DNA of 64,000 bases from Blasia pusilla (GCA_050084515.1 CM114271.1:37200001-37264000), one strand, 5' to 3'. Counted from the stretch's first letter, positions 5,350-64,000 are shown. Notes: a model not told the origin generated them from the sequence alone. Numbers and translations: made by a program.

Positions 5350-5426
<77 letters not shown>

Positions 5427-5900
5427 GAGCTTATTCTCTTCTTTGTTAAACCTCTTGGCATGAGATGGCAAAGCTATGGACAAGTACTCCTTAATTGCCT
5501 TGTGAGTAATCCTAATCCTCTCATTAGGAGAATGGATTTGGTTTGACATGAGAGAAAAATGAAAATTGTGTGCACAATTGTAGTGATCTTGATTTACAAA
5601 GAGAAAATAAGGGAATGGAGCTCTATAATGTATGAGCTTGCTTGTATTTCTTTGATATTGCAAATTGGGGACCATATATGTTTCCCATTCAAAGCTTCAT
5701 AGGAGTTCTCATAAGAGCAAGAGCCACCCAATTGTGTGTATTCAGTGTGGATTTTTTGTGCGGAAGAGAAGCGAATGGAAGCGCTCTCACATTTTTAATA
5801 TAATTTAAGCATACGGACCATGTTTTCCATGTTGGGGATTTTGAGAGCATATTACATTTTGTTTTTTTCTTGTATGATAAATAAAATTTTTGAAAGAAAC
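5076..5900 (+). mobile_element. LTR/leader fragment of the same gypsy-like family
   Basis: Starts TGTTAGG at 5076. Shares long blocks with 61260-61830 (ctcttggcatgag, ctctcattaggag, gtttgacatgagaga). The right boundary is approximate. Confidence 0.7.
5353..5422. repeat. (AG)35 microsatellite
   Basis: Perfect 70-bp dinucleotide run. Confidence 0.98.
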
Positions 5901-9099: not shown

Positions 9100-12000
9100 A
9101 CATGTAATGAATAGGAATATGAGGGATACAAGCCCAATCCTTATGCTTAGTTGGAGTGTTTGCATTTTCCACACTGTCTGAGGAAGTCTTTCTCTTCAAA
9201 CTTGTTGTCTCGTCTGGATTCAAATTATGATCAGCTGGAAAAAATATAAGGCTCACATGTGAAGATGATTACGTCATAAACCTAGACCAGAATGCTATCT
9301 ATAATTTTGTAAAAGTTTTCATTCAAAAGATTGTATCCTTACGCGCTGATTGTGTTGTAGCATTCTCTTCATTGTGGTTGGAGCTTATGGCCTTCAAACT
9401 CACATTGTTTTTTTTATCCTTGTGAGTTGGAGGATGAACTTTGTCTATGTCTACTAATATTACATGTAAAAAGTGAAATATTGTCAATAATGAGCAAGAA
9501 ATGCCAACCAAATAGAGGTAAATAATAAACACATTGTCTCATTTTTACGAGGATAGTCAATAACACTACAACCATAAACACCTTCTTGTAGCTTCCTTCT
9601 CTATGTATGGAGATAAGATAAGTTTACAAACACTAGCGCTTTTGTGAACTTGTCAAGAGTATATGTGAATTCACATTTTGCATTCAAAAGTACATGAGAT
9701 GTATTATAGCCATTTGTGAGGCCATACCCAAAACTGCTTATGTTGGTGTATGAACTTGAGTTGATGGAGAAGATCCTATGTTGGGCAATGGAATATTTGT
9801 TGAACTTTGTATGACTCCATCTTTTGGCGCCAATTTCGATACCATCTCCATCAAAACGCAATAGGAGGGTTTCTCTAATCCCATCCTCTTTTAATTATAT
9901 AGATGATATGGATGGTGTGAGGTTGGGGAGACGCCTTATTTTTCTTTGTTTATTTAGTAAGGGTCCATATCATATGCATTGATTATATCAATATGCAATG
10001 GCCATTGAGAGACATCTTGGAAAAAATAATTTGGTTTTTACAATGACATGTGATCCTAAGCGGGAAGAGATTATATGGGCATGGTTTCCTGACCAAATTG
10101 ATTCAAATTTATTAGATTTGGTTTTGGAAGTTTATTTTTTCTTAAAAAGGGAGTTACTAGGGCTTATTATGAACAAGCATATCTTGAATTGAATTTTGGA
10201 ATGTATCCATGTGGTTAAGTTTCACAAAAGAGGCTTATCATATATCTATGTTTTAATTATTTTGGCACTCGAGGATAAACCAGATATCGATTCCGATTAT
10301 CATGATATCATCTACCTTTAAATTTCTTATCCAAACATATATCTGAGACTGTATTATACTACGGGCAATTGCAGGGTCCATGATCCATGTGGATAACTAC
10401 GTCCAAATGCTCTGGGCATGGATATGAAAACAAAAAATGTACCAAATGCTATTCCAAGGCTTTTGCCATTGTAACTACGGAGACTGATGATGGTTACCCA
10501 ATCTATTGAAGATACTTAAGCTATTACTTCAATAGTGAGTCCTTAAGTAGGAAGCTTTCCATAATATCTATTTTAAGAGAAAAATTCTTCATAAATCTTG
10601 GAGATAATATGTATCGCATCTAAAATTTTTTTGTTTGTTATATGGGCTAGATTGGGTGCTGGAAAGAGGATAATAAAGAAATTTTGGATAGTTTATGGAC
10701 TATGCCTTGTAATCCTTTGTGATTTTCATATTAACTTGGATATTATAAAATTTATTTTAAAGGTGGAATAATTAGATAAATATGTATATAAGGGATTTTA
10801 TATTTTATCATTTAAGTTTTCAAAGAATATGGATACCTCCATGAAAATTGAGATCATTAATCTGAAAAAACTAGATTTCAATGCAAGGTAAAGTTTACAT
10901 ATTTTTATTCTTTCCTGGGTTATAATCAATCTTTTAAAATAATGATATGATATACATAGAAGTAATTATAATATTTTTTACTTTATCTTATGTAAATATA
11001 TAACTTCTCAAGGGGCATATTGACAAGGATTTAAGTTTAATTTATATAAAAAGAAAAACAAGTGTCATGAGATTGGATGTTCATCTCTCAAAGGTGTGAT
11101 TTCTTTGCTTAAATGATTATGACATATATAAGAACCTTATACAAAGAAATAGGGAGACCACCTTGACTTTACTATTTGCTACTTATGAACTTCATGATAC
11201 TACGTGAGAGTATTTATATCTTGGATTTCATTTGTATCATTGTTGGAATGAAAAGATGGATTCTTAGAGTATGAAGAAATAAATATTTGCGGTAATTCCT
11301 TTTTCACTTGTACCTTACGCATCCAAGTAAACACTACATGCTTTATAGTGTTCATGTAGCCAATTTTGTAACATTTGATTCAATTTAAAATCTTACTTCT
11401 AAAAACGTAGTGGGGTGGAAAGAATGAATCATGTTATGAGCAATGATCTTAAAAAGCACATCTTTTCATAGGTGACGGAGAATGCCACCGATTGCATTTA
11501 CTTCTTCATGATGTTCAAGGCGCAATCTCATATGAAGGCTTCAAAACTCGATATAGAGTCCTACATCTAACTCTTAAGGAAGATGCTGTTCACTTGGGAT
11601 TTCTCAAGGATGGTAATGAAGGCTTCTCTGGCTTCTAACAAGTTTCTTACATTTGCATGGTTCTCTCATTCCATCAATTATTTGTTGTTATTCTAGATAG
11701 CTCAGAACACTCTTGCTCGACCCACTACATTATGGAATCCAGTTTTGGATCCATTTAAAGAGGAGCTTACATAATACTTTCCTTGCAGGTGTAAGAAGTG
11801 CAAAAGATATTGCTATACTTGTCTCGTCATATGGGATGGTTGCATTATTATTAGATGGAGGGTATAAAATCCACTCAAACTTTAGAATTCTTACCAATCT
11901 CCATGTAAGCTTTACTAGCATGTTATCTATCAATAGTAACAGAGCATGTGTGATATAAAAATCCTTTTACAGGAGGAGGAACCTATGACTCATCATCATC

Positions 12001-40299: not shown

Positions 40300-40364
40300 T
40301 TGTAAAATGACTTGTGTATATAATTCTTAGTGACATGGAAAGATCATCTTTAGGATCCACACAA

Positions 40365-40813
40365 TCATTATTTATGACTCATTGAGTCATTCTTAAAGAC
40401 ATGGACAAGTCACTTTTATGATGCACAAAGTCGATCTTTATGACTCATTGAGTCATTCTTTATAACTCAGACGAGTCATTCTTTATAACTCAGACGAGTC
40501 ATTCTTTATTACTCAGACGAGTCATTCTTTATTACTCAGAAGATTATGGGTTATTCTTTGTGACTCATCCAAGTCATTGTTTATGACTCACCTAGTCATT
40601 AAGAATCACTACAAAGAAGTCGTATTAAGTGAGGAAGATGAGAAAAAAAATCAGACTAAAATATGACTACACTTGGTTTGAGTAACAACTTATACAAATA
40701 GGAGTAATTTTTGTTATTGTAGTTTGGTTGAGTCATTACAGAGTCTCATAGTCTGATTTTGAGAAACATAAAGTATTTTTTTTAGGCAATGAGAGTGGAG
40801 TTTTGTACTAGTG
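40365..40813. mobile_element. CACTA-type subterminal repeat block and terminus
   Basis: ATGACTCA/TGAGTCAT motifs, a 23-bp tandem unit (GAGTCATTCTTTATAACTCAGAC, ~4x, 40450-40540) and the terminus TTTTGTACTAGTG (reverse complement CACTAGTACAAAA). Confidence 0.6.
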
Positions 40814-42200: not shown

Positions 42201-42619
42201 AATTAACCCACAAATGAGAGGCTTGGGTTACACACACAAGGCAAGGAGGACCATAGCTCCGCCGCCTCATGCCAAGAGGTTCAAGAAAGAGAGAATGAGC
42301 TCTCAAGCTCTCTCTCTTTGAGGTATATCCCCTTCCCTCTCTCAATCCCTCTCCATGGTGACCTATGTATAGGTCATCGGCTCTTGACATGTTTTAGCGA
42401 GTCAAGGGTCACTTCCCAAAGAGGAAAGTCAACTATACCAAGAGCGATAACTTAACCAAATTAACAAGTTCCTCAATATGGCTCCAAATAAGCCGCAACG
42501 AAGGGGAAATCTGCTCTCGCATGTTACACGTGGCCTCAGCAAGTCATCTTTGACCTCCTCAGGCCGTCCTCCAATATCTTTGAAGGAGCTTTACTAGATC
42601 TCATCAATCTATCCTAACA
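42200..42619 (-). mobile_element. LTR fragment of the same gypsy-like family
   Basis: The reverse complement begins TGTTAGGATAGATTGATGAGATCT and aligns by eye with 61113-61520. Confidence 0.8.
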
Positions 42620-43603
42620 GATGTGATAGGTTATCTCGCGCTCCCCATGACCGAACCCCCCTAAACATATCACTTGGAGGAAGAAGATAGGAAGATTTCC
42701 AACAAAAACTAACAAAATAAATCTAAAGGTTGAGATTATGAAGTACCAAAAAGATAATGATTGGAGACATTGTAACAATGGCTTGATCAATGTACACACG
42801 TTATAATGGTGGAACGAGATCTAGGTTTAGGGTTTGGCACTCAAAGGGAATATATGCGCATTTACATAGGTTTCCAAGACCTCCTTCACATCTTTGATGT
42901 GCTAAGGAAAGCCAATGAAATATATCTAAATGCGAGTATATGAATCGGAAATCTCAAAATGAACAAACACGTTTAGTAACATAAGAGAATTCCAAACTCA
43001 CAACCTCTCACCTAATGTGGAATCAATTAGAATTTTTTTAAGACATAACAAGGAGCGTACATATCCAAGTTGGTCACAAACAAAATCTAACTATATGCAA
43101 AGGCACGCAACGGATTTTCCCAAATTCCTAGTAAACTTGAAAGCCAATGATTGTGCCAAGAGGCAATGAGTCAATTTATAGGAATAAATTTAATCATGCC
43201 ATAAGAGAGACATGGCTAAACTCATTTTTCCAACTTACAATAGACATGAGACGATCCTACATTTCGAGAGGTATGGATGGTTTTCATGACTACACTTTGG
43301 AATTGCAAAGATTTTCCAAGAGAGTTTCAAAGGCATTGAACTAGGAAGTCATGCCAAAGAGGCCAAGACGTTAAGTGCATTTTGTGCCCAACAAGTTGTT
43401 CACTTGGAGAAAGTGTATGTCCATTTCAAGACATACAAGAAGGAGAAGCTGAACATTGTAGAGACAACTCTCTTATAGAGATTTATTGGAGAGTAAAAAA
43501 ATGCTGAATGTCTTTTCAAGGAAGGTTCTACTCTTGTGGGGTAGACATTGGTAGTTCCACGTAGAGCTATGTGGATTTTTGACAAGGATGTAGTAGTAGA
43601 ACA

Positions 43604-45411
43604 TGATCCTAAGGATATTTTGGGATCAGGTTTACACGCAACCCTGTACTGTTGTAAAATAAACTAAACCCTTGGCTTTAGTGAAGATATTTATTATTAC
43701 ATAAAGGTGTTTAAGGAAGCATCTTGGTCATTTTCAAGAAAATTCATGATACGTTGTCTTATAGTAAAATCACGAGCTATATAAACACCTCTATCACTAG
43801 GTGTTAGAGAGAGTTTTATTAGTATTAAGTAATTTAGCCTAGGAAAATGAAATTCTCATGTTTAAACCTTTTTAGGGTGACTCATTTGCGCGAGCCTAAC
43901 TTTAGGAAAAGAGATAATAAATAAAATATGGGATTAGAAAAGTAAAGTAGTGGGGTTGGTGCTTTAATGAAACAAAAGCAAGAGTAGTCTTGGTTGGTAG
44001 CTAAGGTAGGTGGGGTAGTTTGGACGATATGAAGGGATGAAAAGCGGATATTTTGGAAGAGATAAGAGGTAATCTACTTGTGTCAAAATATGATTGGCTA
44101 AGCCTTGAGAGGAAGCCATTTGGCACAAGATAAGATTAGTCCTATTTTGTGTTCTTGTGGATCCCTTGTGAGCATATAAAGAGGAGGGATCTTAAAGGGT
44201 TCATCATCTTCTACTTCACATATTGAGTCTCTCGTGTTACTCTTTAGTGTATGGCTCTGGTATTGCTTGCTCTTCCAATGAGAGTGTATTATCCCTTTTG
44301 GGAGAGTAACTTGACCTTGGTGTATTCTTCGAGAGGTTTATAGAGGGTGGTATGCGTGGAGATGAGAGACTTGTCATCTTAGATGGGTTTAATCATACTA
44401 AAAATAGAGTATGGTGTGGCTTGTTATTTTTCCAATGACATTGGATTACCCTTCTTGGGAGAGCAACTCCGCCAAGTCCCATTTTAGAGGAGAGAAGAGG
44501 ATGTTTGTCCTAAGGATATTTTGGGATCAAGTTTACACGCAATCGTATACTGTTGTAAAATAAAATAAACCCTTGGCTTTAATGAAGATATTTATTATTA
44601 CATGAAGGTGTTTAAAGAAGCATCTTGGTCATTTTCAAGAAAATTCATGATACGTTATCGTATAGTAAAATCACGCGCTATGTAAACTCTTATATCATTA
44701 AGTGTTAGAGAGAGTTTTATTAATATTAAGTAAATTAGCCTAGGAAAATGAAATTCCCATGTTTAAACCTCTTTAAGGTGACTCATTTGCACACGATCCA
44801 ACTTTAGGAAAAGAGATAATAAATAAAAGATGGGATTAAAAAAGTGAAGTAGTGGGGTTGGTGCTTTATTAAAACAAAAGAAAAAGTAGTATTGATTGGT
44901 GATTAGGGTTGGTAGGGTAGTTTGGAAGATATGAAAGGAGTAAAACATGATATTTTGGAAGAGATAAGAGATAATCTACTTATGTCAAATGTGATTGGCT
45001 AAGCCTTGAGAGGAAGTCATGTGGCATAAGATAAGATTAGCCCTATTTGATACTCTTATAGATCCCTTGTGAGAATATCAAGAGGAGGGACCTTCAAGGA
45101 TTCATCATCTTATACTTCACATCGTGAGTCTCTTATGTCAATCTTGAGTGTATGGCTTTGGATTTTCTTGCTCTTCCAATGAAAGTGAATTACCCCTTTT
45201 GGGAGAGTAACTTGACCTTGGTTTATTTTTTGAGAGGTTTCTAGAATGTGATATGTGTGGAGATGAGAGACTTGTTACCCTAGATGAGTTTAGTCCTACT
45301 AGAAATACATGATGGTTTGGCTTGTTATTTTTCTAATGAGAGTGGATTACCCTTCTTAGGAGAGCAATTCCGCCAAGTCCCATTCTAGAGGAGAGTAGAC
45401 GATGTTTGTCA
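43604..45411 (+). repeat. Two tandem ~901-bp LTR-like direct repeats
   Basis: CCTAAGGATATTTTGGGATCA occurs at 43608 and 44509, and the copies are collinear throughout. The unit runs TG..CA with a TGTC overlap at the junction. It contains GATTGG and TATAAA-like motifs. Confidence 0.9.
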
Positions 45412-45859
45412 AGTATGGATAGGGCTGGAGCACGAGTTGTGCCTGATTTTCTTTTCCTTAACTCGTACCACATCAAGATTCTCTTTGTAGATAGATAATG
45501 GTTCACTCGCTATCTAATTTATCATTTTGGGGACGCGTTCATGAACCAAGTCATGCAATCTCCAACTTCGGTGATTCGTCCTATAGTCACTCACGGAAGG
45601 ACATGAGATTGCACTTTGTATGTCCTTATATAGCTATCCATGGACGTCAATAGGCCTGCTCGAGTAGGTTTTAACACTAGTTGTGCTATTTTCCTTGTGT
45701 AGAAACGTAAAGTAGTTTACAAGGACTTCATAGTTAAGAATTTTGGGGGTCCATGTTATGAAGAAGTGATCGCCTCGGCACTCCCTTTCGTGATTCATGT
45801 CGTGAGAGAATGGAGGGTTTACATAATAATTCAATACTAAAAAAGGAGATATAGAATTC

Positions 45860-46660
45860 AACTTGCATCAACCACGTGTGCTGCAACTAGAAGGTCCGCC
45901 CTTACTCGAAGAAAGGTTCTCGACACGACAACGTGTAAAGATGTTTGCGACTATTTTACATCAGAGGATATATCGTTCCCTTGGTGGGAAGGTTGATCAA
46001 GGATCCATCACGTACCATCTATCCATATTGGAATGGTGGACACCTTGAAAATTGGTGCAAGCATGCCATACCTTGAAGAATAGCGGGGCAAGTTTAGGAG
46101 AGTTGTAGAAGAGAAGATATCTCACGATGACATCAAATATCATGAAGCTTGTGGCTACCCTTCTTGGTACCATATATGGAGAATGTCCTAAAGCGAGGAG
46201 TTCTTCATAGTGACCTTCATGCTTGGAACATTTTCATCCATTTTGGATGTAACTCATATTCATACATCGGGGTTGGAGATTGGGGAAATGCTTTGTGGGA
46301 TGACGAGTGCTTAGATTCACCTCAAAGATGGTGGCCACATGAACAAGAAAATCATGTCGGGCATATAGTACGGTAGTTGACAACAAGGCTTACGGATCTT
46401 CTTTTTAGCATAGCCACATAAATCTATGCCTTAGGAATGATTTTGAAAAATTGAAACTATGTGACATACAACCTCGCTATCAAGGATGTCCACCCAAATG
46501 TAAGATGGACTTATTTGGATAGGATTAGAAAGTGGGCATTTTCTCCGAACCCCTATGATCGCAAAAGCCTATAGTATCTTATTGCTTATATCATAGCAAA
46601 TGCAAAAATATTAGGTATAGACGATGTAGATTCAGGATTAAGACCAATAATATATGCTCG
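45860..46660 (+). pseudogene. Protein kinase pseudogene, apparently intronless
   Basis: One frame, through internal stops, gives VLHSDLHAWNIFIHF (catalytic loop, ~46200), YIGVGDWG (DFG equivalent, ~46278) and FSIAT*IYALGMIL (subdomain IX). SPNPYDRKS (subdomain XI-like) follows at ~46545. Confidence 0.8.
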
Positions 46661-46898
46661 TTGAGAATATGATGATGGGATTTTTATAACCATGATAGTG
46701 TGATTGTAAACCCGCATGTGGATTGTTTATTTTTCATTGGAAATGAAAGACTTGATTGAAAAAGGTGAATGTATGACTTTGAATGTTTGTAAATGATCAC
46801 GGATGTATGATCCATGGATGTATTCTATGTCATCGTGTAACTATTATTGAAATGTTTTTGAGCCGACCTTTTTCTTTGGAATTTTGATAAAAGACGAG

Positions 46899-49200
46899 AT
46901 GGAGTTTCCACCTAATGAAGACCGTAGTCCTTAGGACATAGGGGGCGACAATAGAGGGGAAGAGACCACTGAAGCTCGCGAAGGGGAACAAGAAGATGAT
47001 CTCACTTTTCATCACCGGAATGAATTGAAGGCGCCCTTGACCCATCAATTCTTAATGCAGAGTTCAAGAAGTCCTGGCTCAAGTGGCTGGAGCATGCGAT
47101 TGGTGAATTTGCAAGGACAGTGGGAGAAGATTAGTGGAAGAATTATTGGGCCTTGTTCAATGGCCTTCCATATTATGAGGACCTTCCACCAAAGAAGAGG
47201 AAGTCAAAGTCGCGGAGTTGATGAAGGACATGGAGGTTCATTATGGCGATGTGGAGGACGCATCTTCGAGAAGAGATAAGACACCCAAAGCAAAGATAGT
47301 ATATCCCCATCGCCATAGTCGAAATGACCAAGAGTGGGAACTTCGTCAAACTTTGGAAGTATGGGCCTATACCCATGTCATCAACATGAGCCATTATCTT
47401 CTCTGCCAAATGGAGGAGAGTAAGGATGGGTTTCCCCACATCGAACTTCATCACGCCAATACCAACAAGGTGGATTGTCAAGAAGCCTTAGAGGCATACT
47501 ATCTTCTTTGGATGGACACAGAATATATTGGCCAACCGAAGAGGAGATAAATGACGGGAGTGAAGATGAAGGGCGAGTCCAATTGGGGGAGGAGATTTTT
47601 GGGGATAGAAGCGATATTTTGAATGACCTCAATGTAGGTTGCAATATGAGCTTTAAAGGGGCCGGAGAGATTTTTGATCACCATGTACATAGTGGGGCTA
47701 TTTCCATAACTTTTTGTTGGGAGAGTGCTCCAATTGATAGCGAGGTTATGTCGTGTCTATCATACCTAGAGAGTTTAATAACAAATTTCTAACTCAATTT
47801 TGATTTGGAAGCAGAATTTAACATTTTGAAGGGAAAGAACCAACAGTTATCCAAGGAGCACGAGAGACTAAAGAGAAAGAAGGAGAGGATCTTCAATAAT
47901 TAAATTTCTAGAGAGGAGCTCCATAGAATACAAAGAGCTATAATGGCTGACCATACGAAGCAATGGAGGAGGGTATATGAATCCATCATGGCAAGACGAA
48001 AGCAAAAAATAGATGAATTGTTGCGATAGAGAGCAAGGGGCAACGTGGAAGAACTCACCCTTGAGACAACTCTATTCAAGGGTCATCTCATGAAGGAGGT
48101 TGATATGATCTTATTTCAACCTATTGAGCAAGTATGGCCTCCTGCTCTACGCGCAACATGGGACAATGTTGTGGATCCAACCGTTGCCAAATATATATAT
48201 TTTTTATGTTGGCCCCAACACCTCTCAATCCGAGCACACAAGAGCAAGATGTGCCTGATTGGATAAAGGCAATCGTTTTAGATGAAGGAGGGGCCCTCGC
48301 ACCAATCAACTAGCCCAAATGCATGATTTTCTTCAATCCCATTGCCGTAGAAGGTTGCTGCGTGACAAACACATGTAAAGCTTGTTATTGCCATCCATAT
48401 TGTCTTCAAAAGGCCATGTTACTAACATATATGTGTCCAACTTGTAGACAACCTTGATCAAGAAGATTGTATCACCTTTTTGGCATATCTTTTTGCTCTC
48501 ATAATAGTAATGCACCAACTACATATCGCAAGCGAACCCAAAAGCAAGACAATTTCACTTTCACTTTGGGACATCGTAGCTCGCGATCCAATTACAACCC
48601 CGAAGTGAACATGGATGGAGTGGTTCATGGAGAAATCCCACGTAAAAAAGGGATAGATATATCGGGTTATGCAAATTTGGCTGATCCGCTTCATTGACAT
48701 AAACGATCATGGAGACCTTATTCACATAAGTGCCATAGATCTCCAAAGTCGAGAGGCATAAAACTTCTTCTTTGCTGAGGAGTTGAATCCACAAGAAGTT
48801 CCCGATGCCCTCAACACAACTCGACAAACTTTCTTAAACCATTATCAAAATCCATTGGTGGATGACCTTGTCTTGATCGAGGAGATTCGGATTGATCTCG
48901 CCACCTTTTTTATGGCAAGATATTCCTCAAAGGATAGTAGGGAGATATCCACGTACATACCATTATCCTCGTAAAATGCAAGAGGAACTTTTTGGATTCT
49001 ACGAGAGAGATTGGGAAATGTTTCCAACACATCCAACACAAGACATAGATGATGGTGAAGCCGATGTTGTGTTGGAAAGGACTAGCTCTAGTGATGTGCC
49101 CCCCCCCTAGAGCTAGGGGGGGGCACATCACTAGAGCTAGGGGAGACAAGGAAGAGTTGGCGAGACATCTCAACCGCTATTACATATAATCTGATGATGA
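46899..49200 (+). pseudogene. Disrupted gene for an NLS / coiled-coil / RING-finger protein
   Basis: PPKKRKSK (~47186), a helical charged segment (DLEAEFNILKGKNQQLSKEHERLKRKK, ~47800-47880) and a RING-like CMIFFNPIAVEGCCVTNTCKACYCHPYCLQKAMLLTYMCPTCRQP (48320-48454). Multiple stops and frameshifts; boundaries approximate. Confidence 0.65.
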
Positions 49201-50419
49201 ATCAGATTGATAGAGTGAGATCATGTTTATATCTTGGTAATATACATAAGTATGAGATTCCTGTGAATCCATAGGTTTGGTGGGATATCACCCAATTTTT
49301 ATAAAAATAAAAATAAAAATCTTGAAAGTGGCTAATTTGTATTATCTAATGGACAAATACTGCACCCATGCAGGAAAGTTGAATGCATGTTTTTGGAAGA
49401 AGTTCTATTGATGGTAATTTGAAGATTAAGAGTTCACTTGGGTTCAGAAAAAAAATTTCAACTTCATTCTTCATTGATCCTCACTATTATGAGTATTGGG
49501 TAACTTAGGAGACTTGTGAATGTGAGCCACTTATGAAAGTTATTCATGAATTGAGTTCATGAAACATCGCAAAGTTTTCTCTAGGATTATCCTTGGATAA
49601 GGTGGAAAGTACGATGACAGAGAGGTTTGTTTGATAAAAAAAATATTATTGTATTTTTAAAAAAAAATGTTTTCATATTTAGGATTTATATTTATATTTA
49701 AAAAGGAGATTCAATTTATTATTTTACAAAATAATTATTGTCCCAAAATTCTATTTTGAGATTTTTCCCCATGGACCTATATTAAATTGAAAAGTAGAAT
49801 GAGGGAATTTTTTATAATCATAACAATGTTATAAATTATTTGAAAGTTATAAATTAAAGATTTGAAATTTTTGATTTCATATTTTGGGAATATGTAGTAT
49901 GACAAAAGACCTCAAACTCTATTCATACAATACGAAATAATAGTGGTATAGTACGACAAAATAACAATATGGTTAAATTTTTGTACCTTGACTAACATTA
50001 AAATGGGGAAAGAAAAAAAAATCAAAGACAGACGAGAATATTTGCATTCATTACTTATTATTGAGTAGTTTTTAAATTTTTTATTATAAGAGATGATCTT
50101 AGGTGTATCATTAGAGAAGTGGGATAATAAGACAAAATATAAAATTTGTATAAGATCATCCCTTAATTAATATTTGGTAGCAAGGGAAAATTAATTTTAA
50201 TGGAGAATGAGTAGATATTGTCGAAATTTTATGGAACGGGGGAATTATGTAAGGGATTAGCCAATCATGTAAATTTTAATTTTGGAATGGAATTTGTTAG
50301 AAGAGCGAAATGCTTTTACTCCTCTAAGATTTTAGAAAAAAAATATCGATCTAGAAAAATCTCACTTTTAAAAATAATTATATTAATTCACATTGGGATA
50401 CATGCAAAAGAAATGTGAA

Positions 50420-53400
50420 AAAAAACGTCTTTCTAGTTTCCATCTTGTGCAAGGATATCATCTTGAGTTCAAATTTGGTATCCTTGCTCTTCATGGTCTA
50501 TGTAGCTCTCTTGCAAAGTTTCAGGAAAAAATGAGTTAAAACCAAGAGTTCCAAAATATTTAAGTCATTTTTGGACCCGTGCCATTAACCCTTCTATGAG
50601 GAAAGGGTCTTTCCATTTTCCATCTTGAGCAAGGATCTCGTCTAGAGCTCAAATTTGGTATCCTTTTTTCTTCATGGTCTATGTAGCTCTCTTGCAAAAT
50701 TTAAAGCTAAGACCAAGAGGTCAACATTTTTAAAGTCATTTTGGACCCGTGCCATTAATCCTTATATGAAACAAGTGTGTTTACATTTTCCATCTTGTGC
50801 ATGGATCTAATCTTGAGCGTAAACTTGGTACACTTGCTTGCCATGGTTGTGTAGCTCTCTTGCAGAGAACAAGAGGTCAACAAATATTTAAGTCATCTTG
50901 GTACCGCCACCATTCAACCTTCTATTAAAAAAGGGTCTTTCTATTTTCCATCATATCCACGAATCTCATTTTTAAATAAATTTTGATACACTTGCTCCTC
51001 TATGTAGCTCTTTTCCAAAGTTTCAAGAAAAATAGAGGTAAGACCAAGAGATCAAAATTGCCATTTTTGGACCCTCGCCATTAAACCTTCTATGAAAAAT
51101 AGGTCTTTCCATTTTTTTATCTTGTGTAAATATATTATCTTGATCTGGAAATTTTTTCCCTTGCTCTTCATGGTCTACGTAGCTCTCATGCAAATTTTTA
51201 AGCAAAATGGAGCTAAGACCAAGAGGCCAACAAATTTGAAGTCATTTTTTGACGCACACCATTAAACCTTCTATGAAAAAAGGGTCTTTTCATTTTCCAT
51301 CTTGTGCAAGGATATCATTTTGAGCTGAAGTTTAGTACACTTGCTTCTTATGGTCTATAGCGCTATCTCAAAAAATTTCAAGCAAAATGGAGCTAAACCC
51401 AAGAGTTCAAAATTATTTAAGTCATTTTTGGACTCGTGCCATTATATCTTCAATGAAAAAAGGGTCTTTCCATCTTACATATTTTGTAGCTCTTGCAAAG
51501 ATTCGAGAAAAATGGAGCTAAGACCAAGAGGTCAAAATATTTAAGTCATTTTTGGGCCCCTGCCATTAAACCTTTTATGAAGAAAAGGTCTTTCCATTTT
51601 TCATCTTATGCAAGGATCTCACCTTGGTTTGAATTTGAGTACACTTGCTCCCCATCGTCTATACAACTCTCTTCCAAATTTTAAAGCAACAAGTAGATAA
51701 GACAAAATCCCTCCAAAATATTTAAGTCATTTTTGGGCCCACACAATTAAACCTTGTATGAAAAAAGTGTGCTTCCATTTTCCATCTTGTGCAAGGATAT
51801 CATCTTGAAATGAAAGATGGTTCCCTCGCTCTTCCTAGTCTTTGTAGCTCTCTTGAAAAGTCTCAAGAAAAGTGGAGCTAAGACCAAGAGGTAAATTTTT
51901 TTGGTCATTTTTTGAAGCAACCGTTAAACCTCTTATTGAAAAAGGATCTTTCCATTTTCCATCTTGTGCAAGGATATCATCTTGAGCTGAATTTTGGTAC
52001 ACTTTCTTCTGATGGTCTAGGTAGCTCTCTTACAAATTTTCAAGAAAAATGGACCTAAGACCAAATGGTGAGAAGTGTTTAAGTCCTTTTTGGACCCGCG
52101 CCATTAAACCTTTAATGAAAAAAGGATCTTTCCATTTTCCATTTTGTGCAGGGATCTTATCTTGAGTAGGAACTTAATGCATTTTCTCCCCGGTTTCTAT
52201 GTAGTTATCTCGCAAAGTTTCAAGGAAAATGGAGCTAAGACAAAGAGGACAGTACTGTTTAAGTCATTTTTGGACCCATGTCATTAAACCTTTTATGAAA
52301 AAGGGTCTTTCCATTTTCCATCTTGTGCAAGGAAATCACTATGAGCTGAAATCTGGTGACCTTTGTCTTCACGGTCTTTTTAGCTCTCTTGCAAAGTTTC
52401 AAGAAAAAAGGAGCTAAGACCAAGAGGTCAACAATATTTAAGTTATTTTTGGATCGGCATCATTAAACGTTATATGAAAAAAGGATGTTCCGATTTTCCA
52501 TCTTGTAAAAGGATATCATCTTGAGCTAAAATTTTCTACCCTTTCTCTTTATGGTCTATTTAGATCTCTTGCAAAGTTTCAAGAAAAATGGAACTAAGAT
52601 TAAAAGCTCGAAATTTTGTAAGTCAATTTTGGACCTACGCCATTAAACCTTCTATGAAAAAAAGATCTTTCCATTTTCCATCTTGTCCAAGGATCTCATC
52701 TTGAGCTTAATTTTGTTCCTTTTCTTCTCATAGTCTATGTAGCTCGCTTGTAAAGTTTTAAGAAAAATGGAGCTAAGACCAAGAGATAAAAAATGTTGAA
52801 GTCATTTTTGGGCCAACGCCATTAAACCTTCTATGGGAAAAGGATATTTCTATTTTCCATCTTGTGCGAGGATCTCATCTTGAGCTTAAATTTTGTACAC
52901 TTACTTGCCATGGTATGTGCAGCTCTTTTGCAAAGTTTCAAGTGAAATGGAGTAAAAAAAAAAAGCTAAGAAATTGTTATGTCATTTTTGGACCGACACC
53001 ATTAAACCTCTCATTGTAAAAGGATCTTTTCATTTTCCATTTGGTTCATGGATCTCATCTTTAGCTAAAATTTGGTACACTTGATCCTCAAGATCTAGGT
53101 AGATGTATTGCAAAGTTTCAAGAAAAATGGAGTCCTGAAAAAAAACTCAAAAATTGATAAGTCATTTCTAGACCAACTAATAAACCTTCAATGAAAAACA
53201 AGGTCTTTCCATTTTCTATCATTTTTGAGAATTTCATCTTTGGAAGAAATTTGGTGCACTTGATTGGGAGGGTGTATTTGGTTGTCTTGCAAAATTTCTA
53301 GCAAAATAGGGTGGTGACCAAGAGTTGAAAAGTGTTTAAGTCAATTTTGAACCCGCGCTGTAAATCTTCTCTCAATAAGACAACCCTTTCAATTTGACCA
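50420..53400. repeat. Tandem satellite-like array, ~180-bp monomer, ~17 copies
   Basis: The anchor ttttccatcttg recurs at about 50441, 50621, 50791, 50949, 51118, 51298, 51471, 51602, 51783, 51960, 52140, 52319, 52499, 52679, 52858, 53038 and 53218. Modal spacing is 179-181 bp, with some deleted units. Confidence 0.95.
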
Positions 53401-54256: not shown

Positions 54257-54690
54257 TCAAAACCTTGAGTTTGTGTAGATGTACATCAAATCCCTGGCAC
54301 ACTTGTTGGTCAATTTATTCATGTGCTTATTGTGGATAAAATCATAACTATTCCAATTTCTCTCCGTTGAAGAGGAAGAAACCATTTGTGCTAATATGGA
54401 CTTAGCCATATAGCCCAATATTGGGGCACCTTGACCGTGCATGCTCCACCAATCAGAGGGGCTAAATAAATCAACAAATTCCCTACCAGACTCATCCACA
54501 AATAATTCCCGATGGTTCACAATGTTGCCCAACTCTCGCAAACAAGTATCTACATAAGAATTAGCCTTGGTGATATTGAGGCCATACGCCCCCTTTGCAT
54601 AAAGTCTCAAATATTGTTTGAAATATCTCATGCACTCAAAATTTGAAGTGACATTTTGAATACTATCAAAAATATTGTAAGGGGCGAGAA
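54257..54690 (-). pseudogene. hAT transposase C-terminal (dimerization domain) fragment
   Basis: SPSDWWSMHGQGAPILGYMAKSILAQMVSSSSTERNWNSYDFIHNKHMNKL matches the hATC pattern WW..G...P.L...A..+L....SSS..ER.WS. It is truncated upstream by the foldback at 54694. Confidence 0.9.
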
Positions 54691-54905
54691 TGTATAGTTA
54701 GGAATTTTGGAGTTCAATATTATGAAGAAGAGATTTCCTCGACACTATCATTCGAGATTCATGTCGTGAGAGAATGAAGAGTGTATATAATAATTCTGTT
54801 TTGAAAAAGAATAACTTCTTAGTGAGTTCACCTTGCATCAACCACGTCTGCCGTAACTCAAAGGTTCTCCCTTACTAAAAAAAAATCTCTCTACACCACA
54901 ACATT

Positions 54906-55752
54906 ATCGTGTCGAGAGTCTTTCTTCATGTAAGGGCGGACTTTCTAGTTGCAACAGACATGGTTGATGCAAGTCAAACTTTGTAAGAAGTTCTCTTTTT
55001 TCAGAACATAATTATTATTTAAACCCTCCATTCTCTCAAGATAGGAATCACGAATGGTAGTGCCGAGGCGATCACTTCCTTGTAACATGGAACCCCAAAA
55101 TTCCTAACTATGAAGTCCTTGTAAACTACTTTACATTTGTACACAAGGAAAATAGCACAACTAGTGTTTAATCATACTCGAGCAAGCCTGTTGATGTCCA
55201 TGGATTGCTATATAAGGACATACAAAGAACAATCCCATGTCCTTGCGTATGAGACTATAGGAAGAATCACCAATTCATGAATGCCTTCCCAAAGTGATAA
55301 ACTAGATAGCGAGTGAACCACTGCCTATCTACAAAGAAAATCTTGACGTGATACGGGTTAAGGAAAGGAAAATGGGGCACAACTCGTGCTCCATTCCTAT
55401 CCATACTTGACAAACATCCTCTAGTCTCTTCTAGAATGGGGTTTGGCGGAGTTGCTATCCCAAGAGGGGGTAATCCAATATCATTGGGAAAATAACAAGC
55501 TAAACCATCCACTATTTCTAGTAAGACTAAACTTCCTAAGTTGACAAGTCTCTTATCTCCACACATACCACACTCTAGAATCCTCTCAAAGACTAGACCA
55601 TGGTCAAGCTAGTCTCCCAAGAGTGACCCTAAAGAGGTTTAAACATGGGAATTTAATTTTCCTAGGCTAATTTATTTAATACTAATAAAACTCTTTCTAA
55701 TACTTAATGATAGAGGAGTTTATTAGTGGGTGATTTTACTATATGATAACAT
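54906..55752 (-). repeat. Inverted, internally deleted copy of 44650-45930
   Basis: 54906-55625 is the reverse complement of ~45195-45930, and 55620-55752 is the reverse complement of ~44650-44785. Confidence 0.9.
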
Positions 55753-56269
55753 GCCAGACCCACACTTAGCCGGCGAGGTTTGAGATATGTCCACCCACAA
55801 CCCGCTATTAGCCTGCACATCCACACTCAGTCCGCACCAGGCCCGCCCTACATCCGTACACCTGCGCTAAGGCCTCACTTAGCCATGAGCCCCATGATAG
55901 GCCCACTTGCCCAACTCGACCTCATCTCACAAGCCCCCGCAAGGCTTGCCATCAGCCGGCCAGGCTCGTGCCCCTAGAAGGCCGTCCATGAGCCCGCGAT
56001 AGCCTGCTTGGCCCGCCTTGAGACCACAAGCTATGCAGGGAAGCCCGCCCTCAGACCGCATCAGGCTCGCCCTCAGCCCGCATCACGCCAATGGCTTGCC
56101 TTTAGCCCGCACCCTTCATCTGAGCCAAAACTTGTTCTCACGCGCAGAGCCAACGTGGTCAACATGGATGCCGAAAAAAATGAGGTCGGAGACCGATTTT
56201 CCATATTCATGGACATTTTCCAAACAAGTCCTTCTGATGGAATGACTTGTCCATTTATGTGCAACCTTG
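55753..56269. mobile_element. Truncated hAT-type element (right end)
   Basis: GC-rich gcccgc/gcccac motif region ending GTGCAACCTTG at 56269. Confidence 0.5.
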
Positions 56270-61112: not shown

Positions 61113-64000
61113 CTTTAGGATTGATCGATGAGATCTATAAGAGCGCCTTCGTGAGTAGGGGACAGGCTCAGTAGGTCAAGGATGACATGTTGAGGCCCTG
61201 GGAAACCTCAGAGAGCAGGTTTCCCCTTCGTTTCGGCTCATTTGGAACCATATTGAGCAACTTACTATTTTTGGCAAGTACTATTTTGAGTATATGATCA
61301 AATTTATATTTTTGGTAAGTGACCCTTGACCTCCTGTCAAGAGCCAAGGAGGTGACTTGGGAGAACAAGTAACCATAGAGAGAGCTTGGGAGAGGGGAGG
61401 GGTATACCTCAAGGAGAGAGAGCTTGAGAGCTCATTCTCTCTTTGTTGAACGTCTTGGCATGAGGCGGCGGAGCTATGGTCCCTTGCCTTGTGAGTGTAA
61501 CCCAAGCCTCTCATTAGGAGAGTGGGTTTTGTTTGACATGAGAGAGAGTGCACACCTTTGAGAGCTATGGTGTGAAATGGTGTAGAGAGAGATTGGATCT
61601 TATTTTACAAAGAGAAAATGAGAGAGTGAGAGAGCTTAATGGGGGAGCTCGCTAGTCACTCGCTCTTTTTGCAGGTTCGGGACCGTGATCCCCGTTCAAC
61701 AACTCATGGGAGTGCTCTGTTGAGCACTCCCATGAGGCTGCCATGAGAGCAAGGGCTGCTTTGATTGTTCTTTGCATTTGCCGATTTTTCGTGTGGAAGA
61801 GTGGCGTGCGAAAGCGCTGCCGGATTTCTGATAGGGATTGATTATTGGGGCGGGTTTCCCCATGCCAATTCTCTCGGGAGCACCATGTAGCTTGCTGATT
61901 TGTATTTTTACAGGTTTTACATTTTGGTTGAGAGAAATAAGCTTGAAGTCTTTGCCAAATTTTGTGTAGGAGAAAGAGATATTGGGCTTTACAACAGTCT
62001 CTGTCAAGTTTTACTGGAATGTTCAATTCCAAATATTTGTTGATGTCATTGTAGATTGTGAAGCTGTACACATTGTGCAACAAAAAATACTCAATTTGCA
62101 GTTTCCAGTAAAAAGTTATAGTCAATCTTGCAAAATTGCCATTGCTAGGCAACTTTAGGGTTAAATTGTTCAAACCCTAAACCAGCCGCCACACCGGCGG
62201 CGGCCGTCGCAGTCACCGTCATAGTCATCATCATCGGTCTACCGTCACCATCACTAGTCAACCATGACCTTCAATGTTCAACCGTCACCATCAACGGTCC
62301 GTCGTCACCATCAACGGTCAACCATCACCGTCAACGTCAACGTCAACGTCAACGGTCCACCGTCGGCCGTTGCTGTTGCCCAGCGTTGCTTAGAGTCGCA
62401 TTCAGCCGTTGTCCACCCTTTGGTTGCCATTGCCACTATTACGGAGTGCAGGGTCTTCCACGACGTTCGTTGATTCTCTGAATTGCATCGCCACCAAGTA
62501 CTTTGTTTTGGTCGGCATCGTCATCGAAGTTTCGTCGTCAACCAATGACGGTAGATGACCTCTGGTTATGGTGTTTGAATTTTGATTTCATGCTGCTATG
62601 TTGTGATTGGTAGCCGCTTGACGAAGATCGAGTACCATGCCGTGCGCTTGTAGCCACAACGCGCCGCCCATTGCCGCGCCGTGCCGCTCGTGGCCGCATC
62701 GTACCGTCTCGATCGCGGAGTCGCACCGTCATTGTGGAGCAGAGTGTGGGTTTATTGTTGATTGAGGAGGGTATGCCACTGAGTGCTACATCCCACCATC
62801 GAGGGCCGTGCCGTTCGTAGCCGTTCCGTGCCGCTTGCAACGCCGCACCGTTCCGCTGGAACCGCACTGTCTATGGAGGAGTTTTGAGCAGCGTCACTAC
62901 AGGAGGAGTATGACTTGCTGATTGGAGGAGTTGTCTCCACGACCGAGTTGGGGTTGAGATTTGTAGTTGCTGAGGAGCGACATCGACATGTGTTCAGGTT
63001 ACCTATTTTGGTCCTTTACCCTGCACGCGTGAGGGATTTTGGGATTTTGGGTAGTTTATTTGGGGATATTGGGTTGTGTGGATGCACGAGGGCCATCACA
63101 GCGTCCTTCAGGATTTTGAGAGGCGAGGTAGTGGACCTGAGAGTAGCTATGGAGGGTTTACCCGGAGTGGTGCAAGGTTTTGAGGGTCTCCACGTGACAG
63201 ACCACCTCGATCTCCTTCTGTATTGTCTTCAGACAAGGGGGAGCGTGTAGAGAAGTGTGTTAGTGATCCATCGTACACATTGAGTGGTCCTACCAGTTGG
63301 GCATACAAGATGGACGACCGCGCTAGGGGACCGCATAGGTTTTCAAGTGCAGTAGGCACGATTGAGTTGCATGATTTCATAGCAGAGTTTAGGAGTTGGT
63401 GCGACTCCCAACGGGCCAGGAACTCTTGAGAGTTTAACCCTTTTACAACATGGAACGGTATGTTCCAACATTTAGCGAGGGTGCCCATGGATGATTACCA
63501 ATAGTTCTCTCAGAGATATTCACGTGAGATCGAGGCGTGGAGGCTCTACTATGACCCACATTATGTGTCATGGACGGAGCCATTCCCAGATGAGGAGGAG
63601 GTGTCAGGAGAGGCTACTTCCTCTTCCACTAGTGATGTTTTAGAGGGGTCACTCGCATGAGAGCGGTTGCACCAGCTAGTCGGGTTCGTCCCAAGTTCAA
63701 CCCTGTGGTTGAGTTCTTTGCTGAGTTGAGGGCGAGCTACTAGGGGATACAGACGGAGAAGTTGCGAAGCATCCACAACTTCCAGAGGTGCCCGTGTGAG
63801 AGTTTATGCGAGGCTTATACTCGCTTGCGCCGGTTGATCAATGTCACTCAAGGGGTGACAGAGGCTCAGGCTATCCAGTCATGGTACAAGATGTTGGACC
63901 AGACCCTGCGGACACGAGTGCGAGAGGGGGTGCTTCTTATGAACACCTCCCCTACGTTGAGAGATGTTTTTAGTACCACCCAGAATATTGAGCGCAACAT
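61113..64000 (+). mobile_element. Ty3/gypsy-like retrotransposon: LTR/leader plus disrupted gag, running off the window end
   Basis: The 5' ~800 bp is homologous to 5076-5900 and to the reverse complement of 42200-42619, whose outer ends read TGTTAGG. At 63200-64000 a stop-interrupted gag-like frame contains EKLRSIHNFQRCPCESLCEAYTRLRRLI (Retrotrans_gag-like Q..ES..Y..R motif). The PBS and LTR 3' end were not located. Confidence 0.75.
62185..62375 (+). repeat. Low-complexity ACCGTC/AACGTC repeat tract in the gypsy-like leader
   Basis: Runs such as caacgtcaacgtcaacgtcaac and duplicated cgtcaccatcaacggtc. Confidence 0.7.

Follow-up and report, generated by a model that had tools for sequence, protein, structure and literature searches.

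A decayed kinase gene split by a long-terminal-repeat-like insertion and followed by a RING-like gene remnant in a multicopy repeat of Blasia pusilla

The locus described here (positions 43,604-49,200) belongs to a window of 64,000 nt of Blasia pusilla DNA (GCA_050084515.1 CM114271.1:37200001-37264000), which is the whole stretch that was analysed and which is plant-like nuclear DNA. It carries the remnants of two co-oriented genes, a protein kinase gene (gene 1) and a gene that ends in a RING-like finger (gene 2), together with two tandem units of 901 bp and an insertion resembling a long terminal repeat (LTR), named T1 (Table 1). A sequence-only reading of the same DNA had proposed a mobile element in which LTR-like repeats are followed by kinase and RING genes carried as cargo. 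Indeed, both genes are real and co-oriented remnants, as attested by profile and tblastn matches for the kinase and by weak Pfam and PDB matches for the RING-like gene. The LTR-cargo architecture, however, does not hold: T1 interrupts the kinase gene between its N-lobe and its remainder and has its own 4-bp target-site duplication (TSD) inside this gene, the N-lobe lying upstream of it. As found, the locus is dead and ordinary, a nested and decayed copy of a multicopy kinase and RING repeat.

The profile of the kinase family presented below matches the window once (46,014-46,649, E=5e-20), and tblastn with intact relatives is colinear with the DNA from 45,963 (RGYIVPLVG) to 46,646 (SGLRP), with no intron-size gaps. 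The description of the kinase as intronless stands for this C-terminal part; it does not stand for an uninterrupted gene placed downstream of the repeats, since each unit starts with the N-lobe. Pfam alone returns for the remnant only sub-threshold APH matches (E=0.0023-0.011) and no Pkinase match at E<=1. The catalytic residues that can be recognised are the beta-3 Lys, the catalytic-loop Asp and Asn and the Asp of the DFG motif (in YYIKVFK, HSDLHAWN and GDWG); of the remaining landmarks, the APE motif has disappeared and no alpha-C Glu can be made out. Stop codons are numerous, 13 in the 300 codons of 45,900-46,799 and 8 in the 237 codons of the kinase frame proper (45,939-46,650), and the copy is dead, as had been claimed. 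The kinase itself was correctly recognised, but the HSDLH/DWG signature that had been called atypical is the norm of its family.

The N-lobe was located with the family hidden Markov model (HMM), which gives weak matches at 43,596-43,736 and 44,521-44,631 for HMM positions 168-212 and 176-210 respectively, the segment of the glycine loop and the beta-3 lysine (LGSGLHATLYCCKIN*TLGFSEDIYYYIKVFK); positions 168-212 come directly before those of the downstream kinase match. In a null comparison, the 60-aa peptide of unit A scored 8.4 bits, a value reached by 6 of 6,384 six-frame windows of 60 aa, all of them in the known kinase remnant; the next-best windows were the unit-A and unit-B peptides (8.3, 5.7 and 4.6 bits), and the best unrelated window reached 4.1. 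The same in-frame stop is present in both N-lobe copies, which indicates that the kinase was dead before the duplication. Two other N-lobe candidates, at 45,830-45,935 (frame 0) and at 45,683-45,760 (inverted twin 55,079-55,156), had been picked by eye or by weak tblastn matches and were dropped, their scores being at noise level in the same null test.

By its sequence, the kinase remnant belongs to a small orphan family that resembles the tyrosine kinase and tyrosine-kinase-like (TK/TKL) groups. A phmmer search with the remnant against 1.84 billion cluster representatives gave 10 matches at E<=1e-3 (best 7.1e-10), all ten of which contain Pfam Pkinase (E 1.6e-9 to 5e-51); they include P0013, a large, unrelated kinase-repeat protein of 2,179 aa. 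Searched against 5.8 billion proteins, the family profile scored 7,999 candidates, of which 17 reached E<=1e-5. Among these 17, names are attached to three alone, all of them cluster representatives from Riccia fluitans; the gene models behind them number six (75-261 aa), are spread over four chromosome-size contigs and include four that fall into one 90%-identity cluster. R. fluitans is thus a second species with dispersed, fragmentary copies of this kinase family. Intact members, 440-473 aa long, are encoded by Logan or ENA contigs of 1.1-4.5 kb, and the window remnant is 20-26% identical to every family member. The family is recognised by the motifs WNGG, HNDLHxxN..HF, (V)Y.GI.DWG and APE and by a C-terminal SGLRP, and its alignment shows little or no variation at the K, E, D, N and D of the catalytic core. 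In the AlphaFold model of P0007 (mean predicted local distance difference test score 83.9), a disordered linker separates a helical N-domain (residues 1-104) from a canonical kinase fold whose closest matches are MET, ACK1, JAK2, KIT, Roco4 and IRAK4; against the PDB, the family profile retrieves generic kinases (best E=4e-12). A word-index protein search with the remnant in the length class of 165-525 aa gave no match, and the kinase profile found no relative in metagenomes and viral contigs.

The limits of T1 were defined by comparison with an inverted copy of it, with which homology stops at 43,751-43,755 and at 45,930-45,934. The junctions read ACGT/TGTC...GACA/ACGT in the plus copy and, on its own strand, ATGT/TATC...GATA/ATGT in the inverted copy, whose flanking ATGT are at 55,752-55,749 and 54,904-54,901 (minus strand). 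T1 therefore has ends of the TG..CA type with a 4-bp inverted terminus, and the 4-bp direct repeat is perfect (4/4) in both complete copies; such ends together with a TSD in both copies are the signature of a solo LTR. The plus copy has been enlarged by a block named X and by the 901-bp tandem duplication. A third, truncated T1 meets the inverted one end to end, forming a small palindrome (54,694-55,111) in which the termini overlap by 4 nt (ACAT). At this place a second T1 seems to have inserted exactly in the TSD of the first one, which suggests that T1 strongly prefers A[CT][GA]T as its target. A full-length element combining T1 LTRs with gag-pol was not seen anywhere in the window. T1 was also considered as a hAT-like transposon with an 8-bp terminal inverted repeat (ACGTTGTC); this identity was rejected, as the palindromic ACGT TSD and the TGTC/GACA ends explain the apparent inverted repeat, and as 8-bp flanks match at 5/8 positions only, against the perfect 4-bp TSD of both copies. 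A hAT dimerisation open reading frame (ORF, 54,257-54,697) merely adjoins the truncated T1.

Contigs assembled from two public DNA runs (X1 and X2, both from one organism, organism A), aligned at 80-99% identity over the whole of 41-61 kb, provide a counterpart of the interrupted gene. Both runs contain a joint from 43,724 to 45,939 with 34 letters in between, and these letters are colinear with 43,725-43,755 (23/34 identical ungapped, 23/28 over positions 4-31, by eye). At least one other genomic copy therefore runs from the N-lobe directly into the kinase remainder, without the 2.2-kb block. The spacing from the flanking GAT to AGATG is 8 nt in the joint contig, and also 8 nt in the window once T1 and one TSD are subtracted; with T1 removed, about 55 aa separate the glycine loop from RG(Y)I (manual count), where the kinase family has 53 aa. 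The idea that the genes are always linked to the repeat is contradicted by this joint, which links the kinase halves without the T1 block.

The two tandem 901-bp units that had been taken for LTRs do exist and are 87.8% identical over 905 columns. They do not share TG..CA ends: in the phase originally adopted (43,604 + 901n), unit 1 starts with TG and unit 2 with TT, directly preceded by GT. Nor are they the terminal repeats of a gene-carrying element. Each is composed, in this order, of the 3' part of the kinase N-lobe (43,607-43,750 in unit 1), the TSD, the 5' part of T1, the 408-bp block X and the middle of T1, and this composite make-up identifies the tandem as a local duplication, not a terminal repeat. 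The units abut directly with no internal region between them, and the sole further copy is inverted and partial. Between the units, identity is 94.6% in the N-lobe, 89.8% in the first T1 part (T1a), 86.0% in X and 87.3% in the second T1 part (T1b); the duplicated N-lobe part (43,607-43,754 and 44,508-44,655) is more alike than the remainder of the unit (86-90%), on a small sample. A primer-binding site after the 5' unit was sought with a tRNA-iMet motif, the only tRNA used: at a tolerance of 2 mismatches it matches the window four times, and never within 43-46 kb.

The reported recurrence at 54.9-55.75 kb does correspond to a copy, but an inverted one that lacks the block of 408-411 bp and the first ~147 bp of the unit. 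The pairing is inverse throughout, 45,196-45,934 with 55,623-54,901 (82% identity) and 43,753-43,883 or 44,654-44,784 with 55,750-55,621. Block X is either a nested insertion, or else the inverted T1 copy has a deletion. Summed contig depth within X at 44,812 is 1,373 in X1 and 30,491 in X2, against 81 and 183 at 44,793; about 10 distinct contigs cover 44,790, beside the T1/X junction, which indicates that the X-bearing form is itself repeated. For both T1 and X, summed depth is far above that of the kinase and gene 2 stretch.

Gene 2 starts about 270 bp past the kinase stop (46,662-46,664), in the same orientation. Its N-terminal part is covered up to 47,792 by three forward ORFs (114-123 codons) that overlap one another and use two frames, one of them twice; in Markov simulations, a forward ORF of at least 114 codons arose in 5% of runs. 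The basic cluster KRKKER and a helical heptad-like stretch (~47.8-48.1 kb) were noted by eye. Of the nine sequence matches in the PDB, the five best are all to the RNF4 RING, with E=2.5e-4 when it is in a tandem construct and 0.04 when it is a single domain. Alignment with RNF4 indicates that six of the eight RING ligands are kept, the first Cys being replaced by a stop (48,311-48,313) and the His by Ala; a TGA stop at 48,455 follows the RING peptide. The predicted product of gene 2 looks nuclear and has an RNF4-type RING finger at its C-terminal end. Of the earlier description as a protein with nuclear localisation signal, coiled coil and RING, the RING is retained as a sub-threshold resemblance to that of RNF4, and the other two elements are recognised by eye only. 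Outside the RING, gene 2 has no Pfam or PDB match; the RING stretch has no relative in a word-index protein search (105-335 aa), nor has the ORF 47,179-47,547 in metagenomes. A contig of 1,120 nt from another run (X7, whose RNA status is guessed) covers 47,708-47,808 and 47,919-48,424 at ~84% identity, with a stop right before the last CP.C pair (by eye).

Table 1. Features of the locus and of the rest of the window (positions in the 64,000-nt window).
Feature	Position	Strand	Description and basis
Kinase N-lobe remnant	43,563-43,750	+	Glycine loop LGSGLHA, beta-3 lysine in YYIKVFK; one in-frame stop; family HMM
Tandem units 1 and 2	43,607-44,509 and 44,508-45,410	+	87.8% identity, 905 columns
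Left TSD of T1 (ACGT)	43,751-43,754	+	Partner ACGT 45,931-45,934; read from junctions
T1, LTR-like (solo-LTR-type) insertion	43,755-45,930	+	Ends TGTC...GACA; limits of homology to inverted copy; contig joint
Block X, very high-copy	43,884-44,291; second copy 44,785-45,195	+	Absent from inverted T1; TATA-like CATATAAAGAGG
Kinase remainder	45,935-46,664	+	RGYIVPLVG, WNGG, HSDLHAWN..HF, GDWG, C-terminal SGLRP; stop at 46,662-46,664
Gene 2 remnant	46,935-48,457	+	Acidic/basic N-part, KRKKER cluster, heptad-like stretch, C-terminal RING-like finger
RNF4-like RING finger remnant	48,314-48,454	+	47 residues, Cys-rich; Pfam, PDB; one frame over
Perfect 25-bp palindrome, 9-nt loop	49,082-49,140		100% complementary arms; DNA fold -33 kcal/mol, z=-8.5
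Third T1, 5'-truncated	54,694-54,900	+	Last ~207 bp; 76-77% identity
Second T1, short form without X	54,905-55,748	minus	844 bp; 82-89% identity to plus-copy T1 parts
hAT transposase C-terminal dimerisation-domain ORF	54,257-54,697	minus	146 aa; Pfam PF05699, E=3.9e-10, above cut-off
Ty1/copia pol	58.0-60.8 kb	minus	
GDSL lipase gene	26.9-28.4 kb	minus	Pfam PF00657
Helitron RepHel pieces, decayed	9,983-10,189 and 11,701-11,955	+	Helitron_like_N E=2.8e-6, PIF1 helicase E=5e-7

The stretch is multicopy, in agreement with the sequence-only reading: many distinct, diverged contigs are found at single sites over 46.2-48.95 kb. At each site, we counted the distinct contigs carrying a letter different from that of the window, among the best-supported ones listed. 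These counts are, for X1 and X2 respectively, 11 and 8 at 46,260, 13 and 23 at 46,739, 13 and 5 at 47,766, 11 and 20 at 48,006, and 12 and 8 at 48,943; they are of similar order (5-23) at the listed sites across the kinase, gene 2 and the stretch that follows the RING. The statement that no gag, pol or transposase is readable was also borne out: a domain scan at E<=0.1 of the 79 ORFs that reach 45 aa in 45.1-50.2 and 53.7-58.3 kb gave none, the ORFs inside the satellite at 50.2-53.5 kb being left aside. Gag, reverse transcriptase, RNase H and integrase matches number 0 of 79; the copia pol at 58.0-60.8 kb lies on the opposite strand. Beyond gene 2, the palindrome of Table 1 is situated where the listed variant sites thin out and may be the end of the repeat unit; its arm occurs nowhere else in the window. 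This hairpin ends in CTAG followed by G (a Helitron has a CTRR end and an A/T insertion), no 5' end was identified, and the RepHel remnants are ~31 kb from the locus, beyond the host GDSL gene. No description of a kinase/RING-bearing element was found in the literature searched, which is not proof of absence in print.

We hold with moderate confidence that the locus is a decayed copy of a dispersed multicopy plant repeat bearing two co-oriented genes, of which the kinase has been split by T1, and that these genes are possibly a mobile passenger pair. The repeat, which would once have encoded the kinase and gene 2, would begin at about 43.0-43.6 kb and end near 49.1 kb. The intact relatives of gene 1 are proteins of 440-473 aa in which a helical N-domain and a linker precede a kinase domain that keeps every catalytic residue and ends in SGLRP. 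The kinase would have been dead beforehand; T1, with its TG..CA ends and 4-bp TSD, would then have inserted between the N-lobe and the rest of the kinase domain; and a 901-bp segment covering the N-lobe and the 5' part of T1 would finally have been duplicated in tandem, producing the two units once read as LTRs. The inverted copy at 54.9-55.75 kb would be a separate T1 insertion. We regard the structure of this copy, the family to which its kinase belongs and its multicopy nature as demonstrated, and infer that the kinase and the RING gene were amplified together, as passengers or as sole ORFs of a non-autonomous mobile element which, since neither transposase nor reverse transcriptase lies between them, would move in trans. 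The intact pair would presumably consist of a Ser/Thr(/Tyr) kinase and a ubiquitin E3 ligase.

Several observations weigh against this interpretation. At the level of the kinase, the HMMER E-values of the N-lobe are not significant (1.1 and 6), the N-terminal domain of the family (~165 aa) was not detected upstream by family HMM or tblastn, and the N-lobe and C-terminal part are one base out of frame, in the joint contig and in the window alike; for the empty-site joint itself, each run provides a single contig, whose shorter side measures 19-21 nt. At the level of gene 2, the zf-RING_2 match (E=0.033, aligned over profile positions 2-44 of 44) scores 14.9 bits for a cut-off of 27.3. As to copy number, only 2-6 contigs are found at 47,094-47,388 and 47,894-47,902 among the sites listed, summed contig depth is not equivalent to copy number, and contigs of at most ~400 nt do not allow the kinase-RING linkage to be read in other copies. 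Finally, the search for termini, for a TSD and for carrier machinery of the kinase/RING unit gave nothing at the locus.

Alternatively, the two remnants could be pseudogenes of a lineage-specific host gene family spread by segmental or tandem duplication in repeat-rich chromatin. The intact relatives, encoded alone on transcript-size contigs (1.1-4.5 kb), the lack of carrier termini at the locus and surroundings that are a repeat mosaic are in favour of such an origin; we nevertheless regard it as unlikely, because six Riccia models on four chromosome-size contigs, four of them in one 90%-identity cluster, and at least 10 diverged variants in organism A look more like the dispersal of a repeat. 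That the two genes are chance neighbours, unrelated passengers each multicopy on its own account (for instance through separate captures or retrocopies), seems quite unlikely: the transcripts of the relatives do carry the kinase ORF alone and no RING relative emerged from any protein search, but the genes are co-oriented and ~270 bp apart, and the numbers of distinct contigs are of similar order along 46.2-48.95 kb. It is distinctly improbable, in our opinion, that an undescribed selfish repeat family of bryophyte-grade plants possesses the kinase and the RNF4-like RING as genes of its own. Such a family would be intact and expressed in other organisms, its copies here and in Riccia fluitans being decayed, and, with a kinase and a ubiquitin ligase but no known transposition enzyme, would have to borrow the machinery of others or use an unrecognised mechanism. 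As for the retrotransposon in which the LTRs are the 901-bp units, or T1 and the partial copy at 54,694-54,900, with kinase and RING as internal cargo, it can draw on the TG..CA ends of T1 and on that co-oriented copy 8.8 kb downstream, followed by an ACAT that matches at 3/4 the ACGT before the first T1, but is very improbable and largely refuted, given that ACGT also stands right after the first T1 (4/4), which marks a solo insertion, that ACAT is the TSD of the inverted T1, that the kinase N-lobe is upstream of T1 and is joined by a contig to the C-terminal part without it, that 43-46 kb contain no tRNA-iMet primer-binding site and the scanned ORFs no gag or pol, that nothing separates the abutting units, and that the would-be internal region contains a 180-bp satellite and a hAT fragment.

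For annotation, the lesson of the decayed repeat copy is that tandem LTR look-alikes can be produced by a local duplication of a gene fragment together with a nested insertion, and that they are exposed only by the empty site and the TSDs. The part most worth following up is the kinase family itself, unannotated and narrowly distributed, with its HND and DWG variants, its WNGG and SGLRP motifs and its private N-domain, which behaves like a dispersed repeat in two plant genomes. If the kinase and the RING were linked in other copies as well, they would constitute a rare pair of signalling and ubiquitin genes amplified in the manner of a transposon, with a possible bearing on the conflict between host and element.

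The other features of the window are mostly repeats. The hAT ORF is an adjacent transposon fragment outside the kinase/RING unit, and the Helitron_like_N match is slightly below its cut-off. A satellite array (50,370-53,334) comprises ~16 copies of a 180-bp unit with a higher-order period of 359 bp and 62-92% identity to reference copies, and 40,323-40,600 is occupied by tandem repeats with units of 23 bp and 66 bp, in up to 10 copies. A very high-copy repeat fragment is present at 42,213-42,617, 61,115-61,515 (inverted) and 5,413-5,555, with 78% identity between copies; before 42,213, many contigs of all four runs share a different sequence, which indicates that this repeat copy is truncated there. 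Upstream of the kinase N-lobe, 90 nt (43,349-43,440) are skipped in one X1 DNA contig and one X7 contig, probably an indel between repeat copies. Immediately outside the inverted T1, a GC-rich stretch (55,750-56,100) contains Pro/Ala/His/Arg-rich ORFs in two frames, with no family match in a Pfam scan. No tRNA or Rfam family was found within 40-58 kb. An endogenous giant-virus origin was also considered and rejected, no viral hallmark domain being detected among 271 ORF or frame translations.

Compared with known systems, T1 resembles the solo or nested LTR insertions of plants by its TG..CA ends, its short terminal inverted repeat (TGTC/GACA), its 4-bp (possibly 5-bp) TSD, its very high copy number and its isolated copies; the TSD of plant LTR elements is usually 5 bp, and T1 has no similarity to the copia element at 58-61 kb. 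Pack-MULEs, gene-capturing Helitrons and Pack-CACTA are non-autonomous transposons that carry genes. The window repeat is comparable to them in having host-like ORFs without transposase and many diverged, dead copies, but neither terminal inverted repeats nor the 5' TC and 3' CTRR ends of a Helitron were identified at it, and its kinase is not an exon fragment but a whole domain down to the native stop, without introns in the C-terminal ~228 codons. Gene 2 shares with RNF4, a SUMO-targeted ubiquitin ligase, the C-terminal position of the RING, the CPTCR ending and a long spacer that separates the second Cys pair from the first; it differs by the weak score (E=0.04 for the single domain), the stop in place of the first Cys and the Ala in place of the His ligand.

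In liverworts, Marchantia ORF162 has a RING motif. The published account of the Marchantia polymorpha V chromosome describes ORF162 and M2D3.5 as embedded in chromosome-specific repeats (PMC9261002); while the window bears no sign of a sex chromosome, these two genes are, to that extent, a liverwort precedent for genes embedded in repeats. Among kinases, the TK/TKL proteins MET, ACK1, JAK2, KIT, Roco4 and IRAK4 are the best fold and profile matches of the intact relatives; the orphan family is distinguished from them by an identity of only 15-20%, by HND for HRD and DWG for DFG, by its own WNGG and SGLRP motifs and by a private helical N-domain. Members of this same orphan family are the Riccia fluitans fragments R1flu_028521 (KAL2609948.1), R1flu_021209, 001133, 015491, 017810 and 015080. 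The first is the best match of the window remnant (E=7.1e-10), and identity is only 26% over 166 aligned positions, but like the family in the window these fragments have WNGG, H.DLH..N..HF and GDWG and are multicopy, dispersed and truncated.

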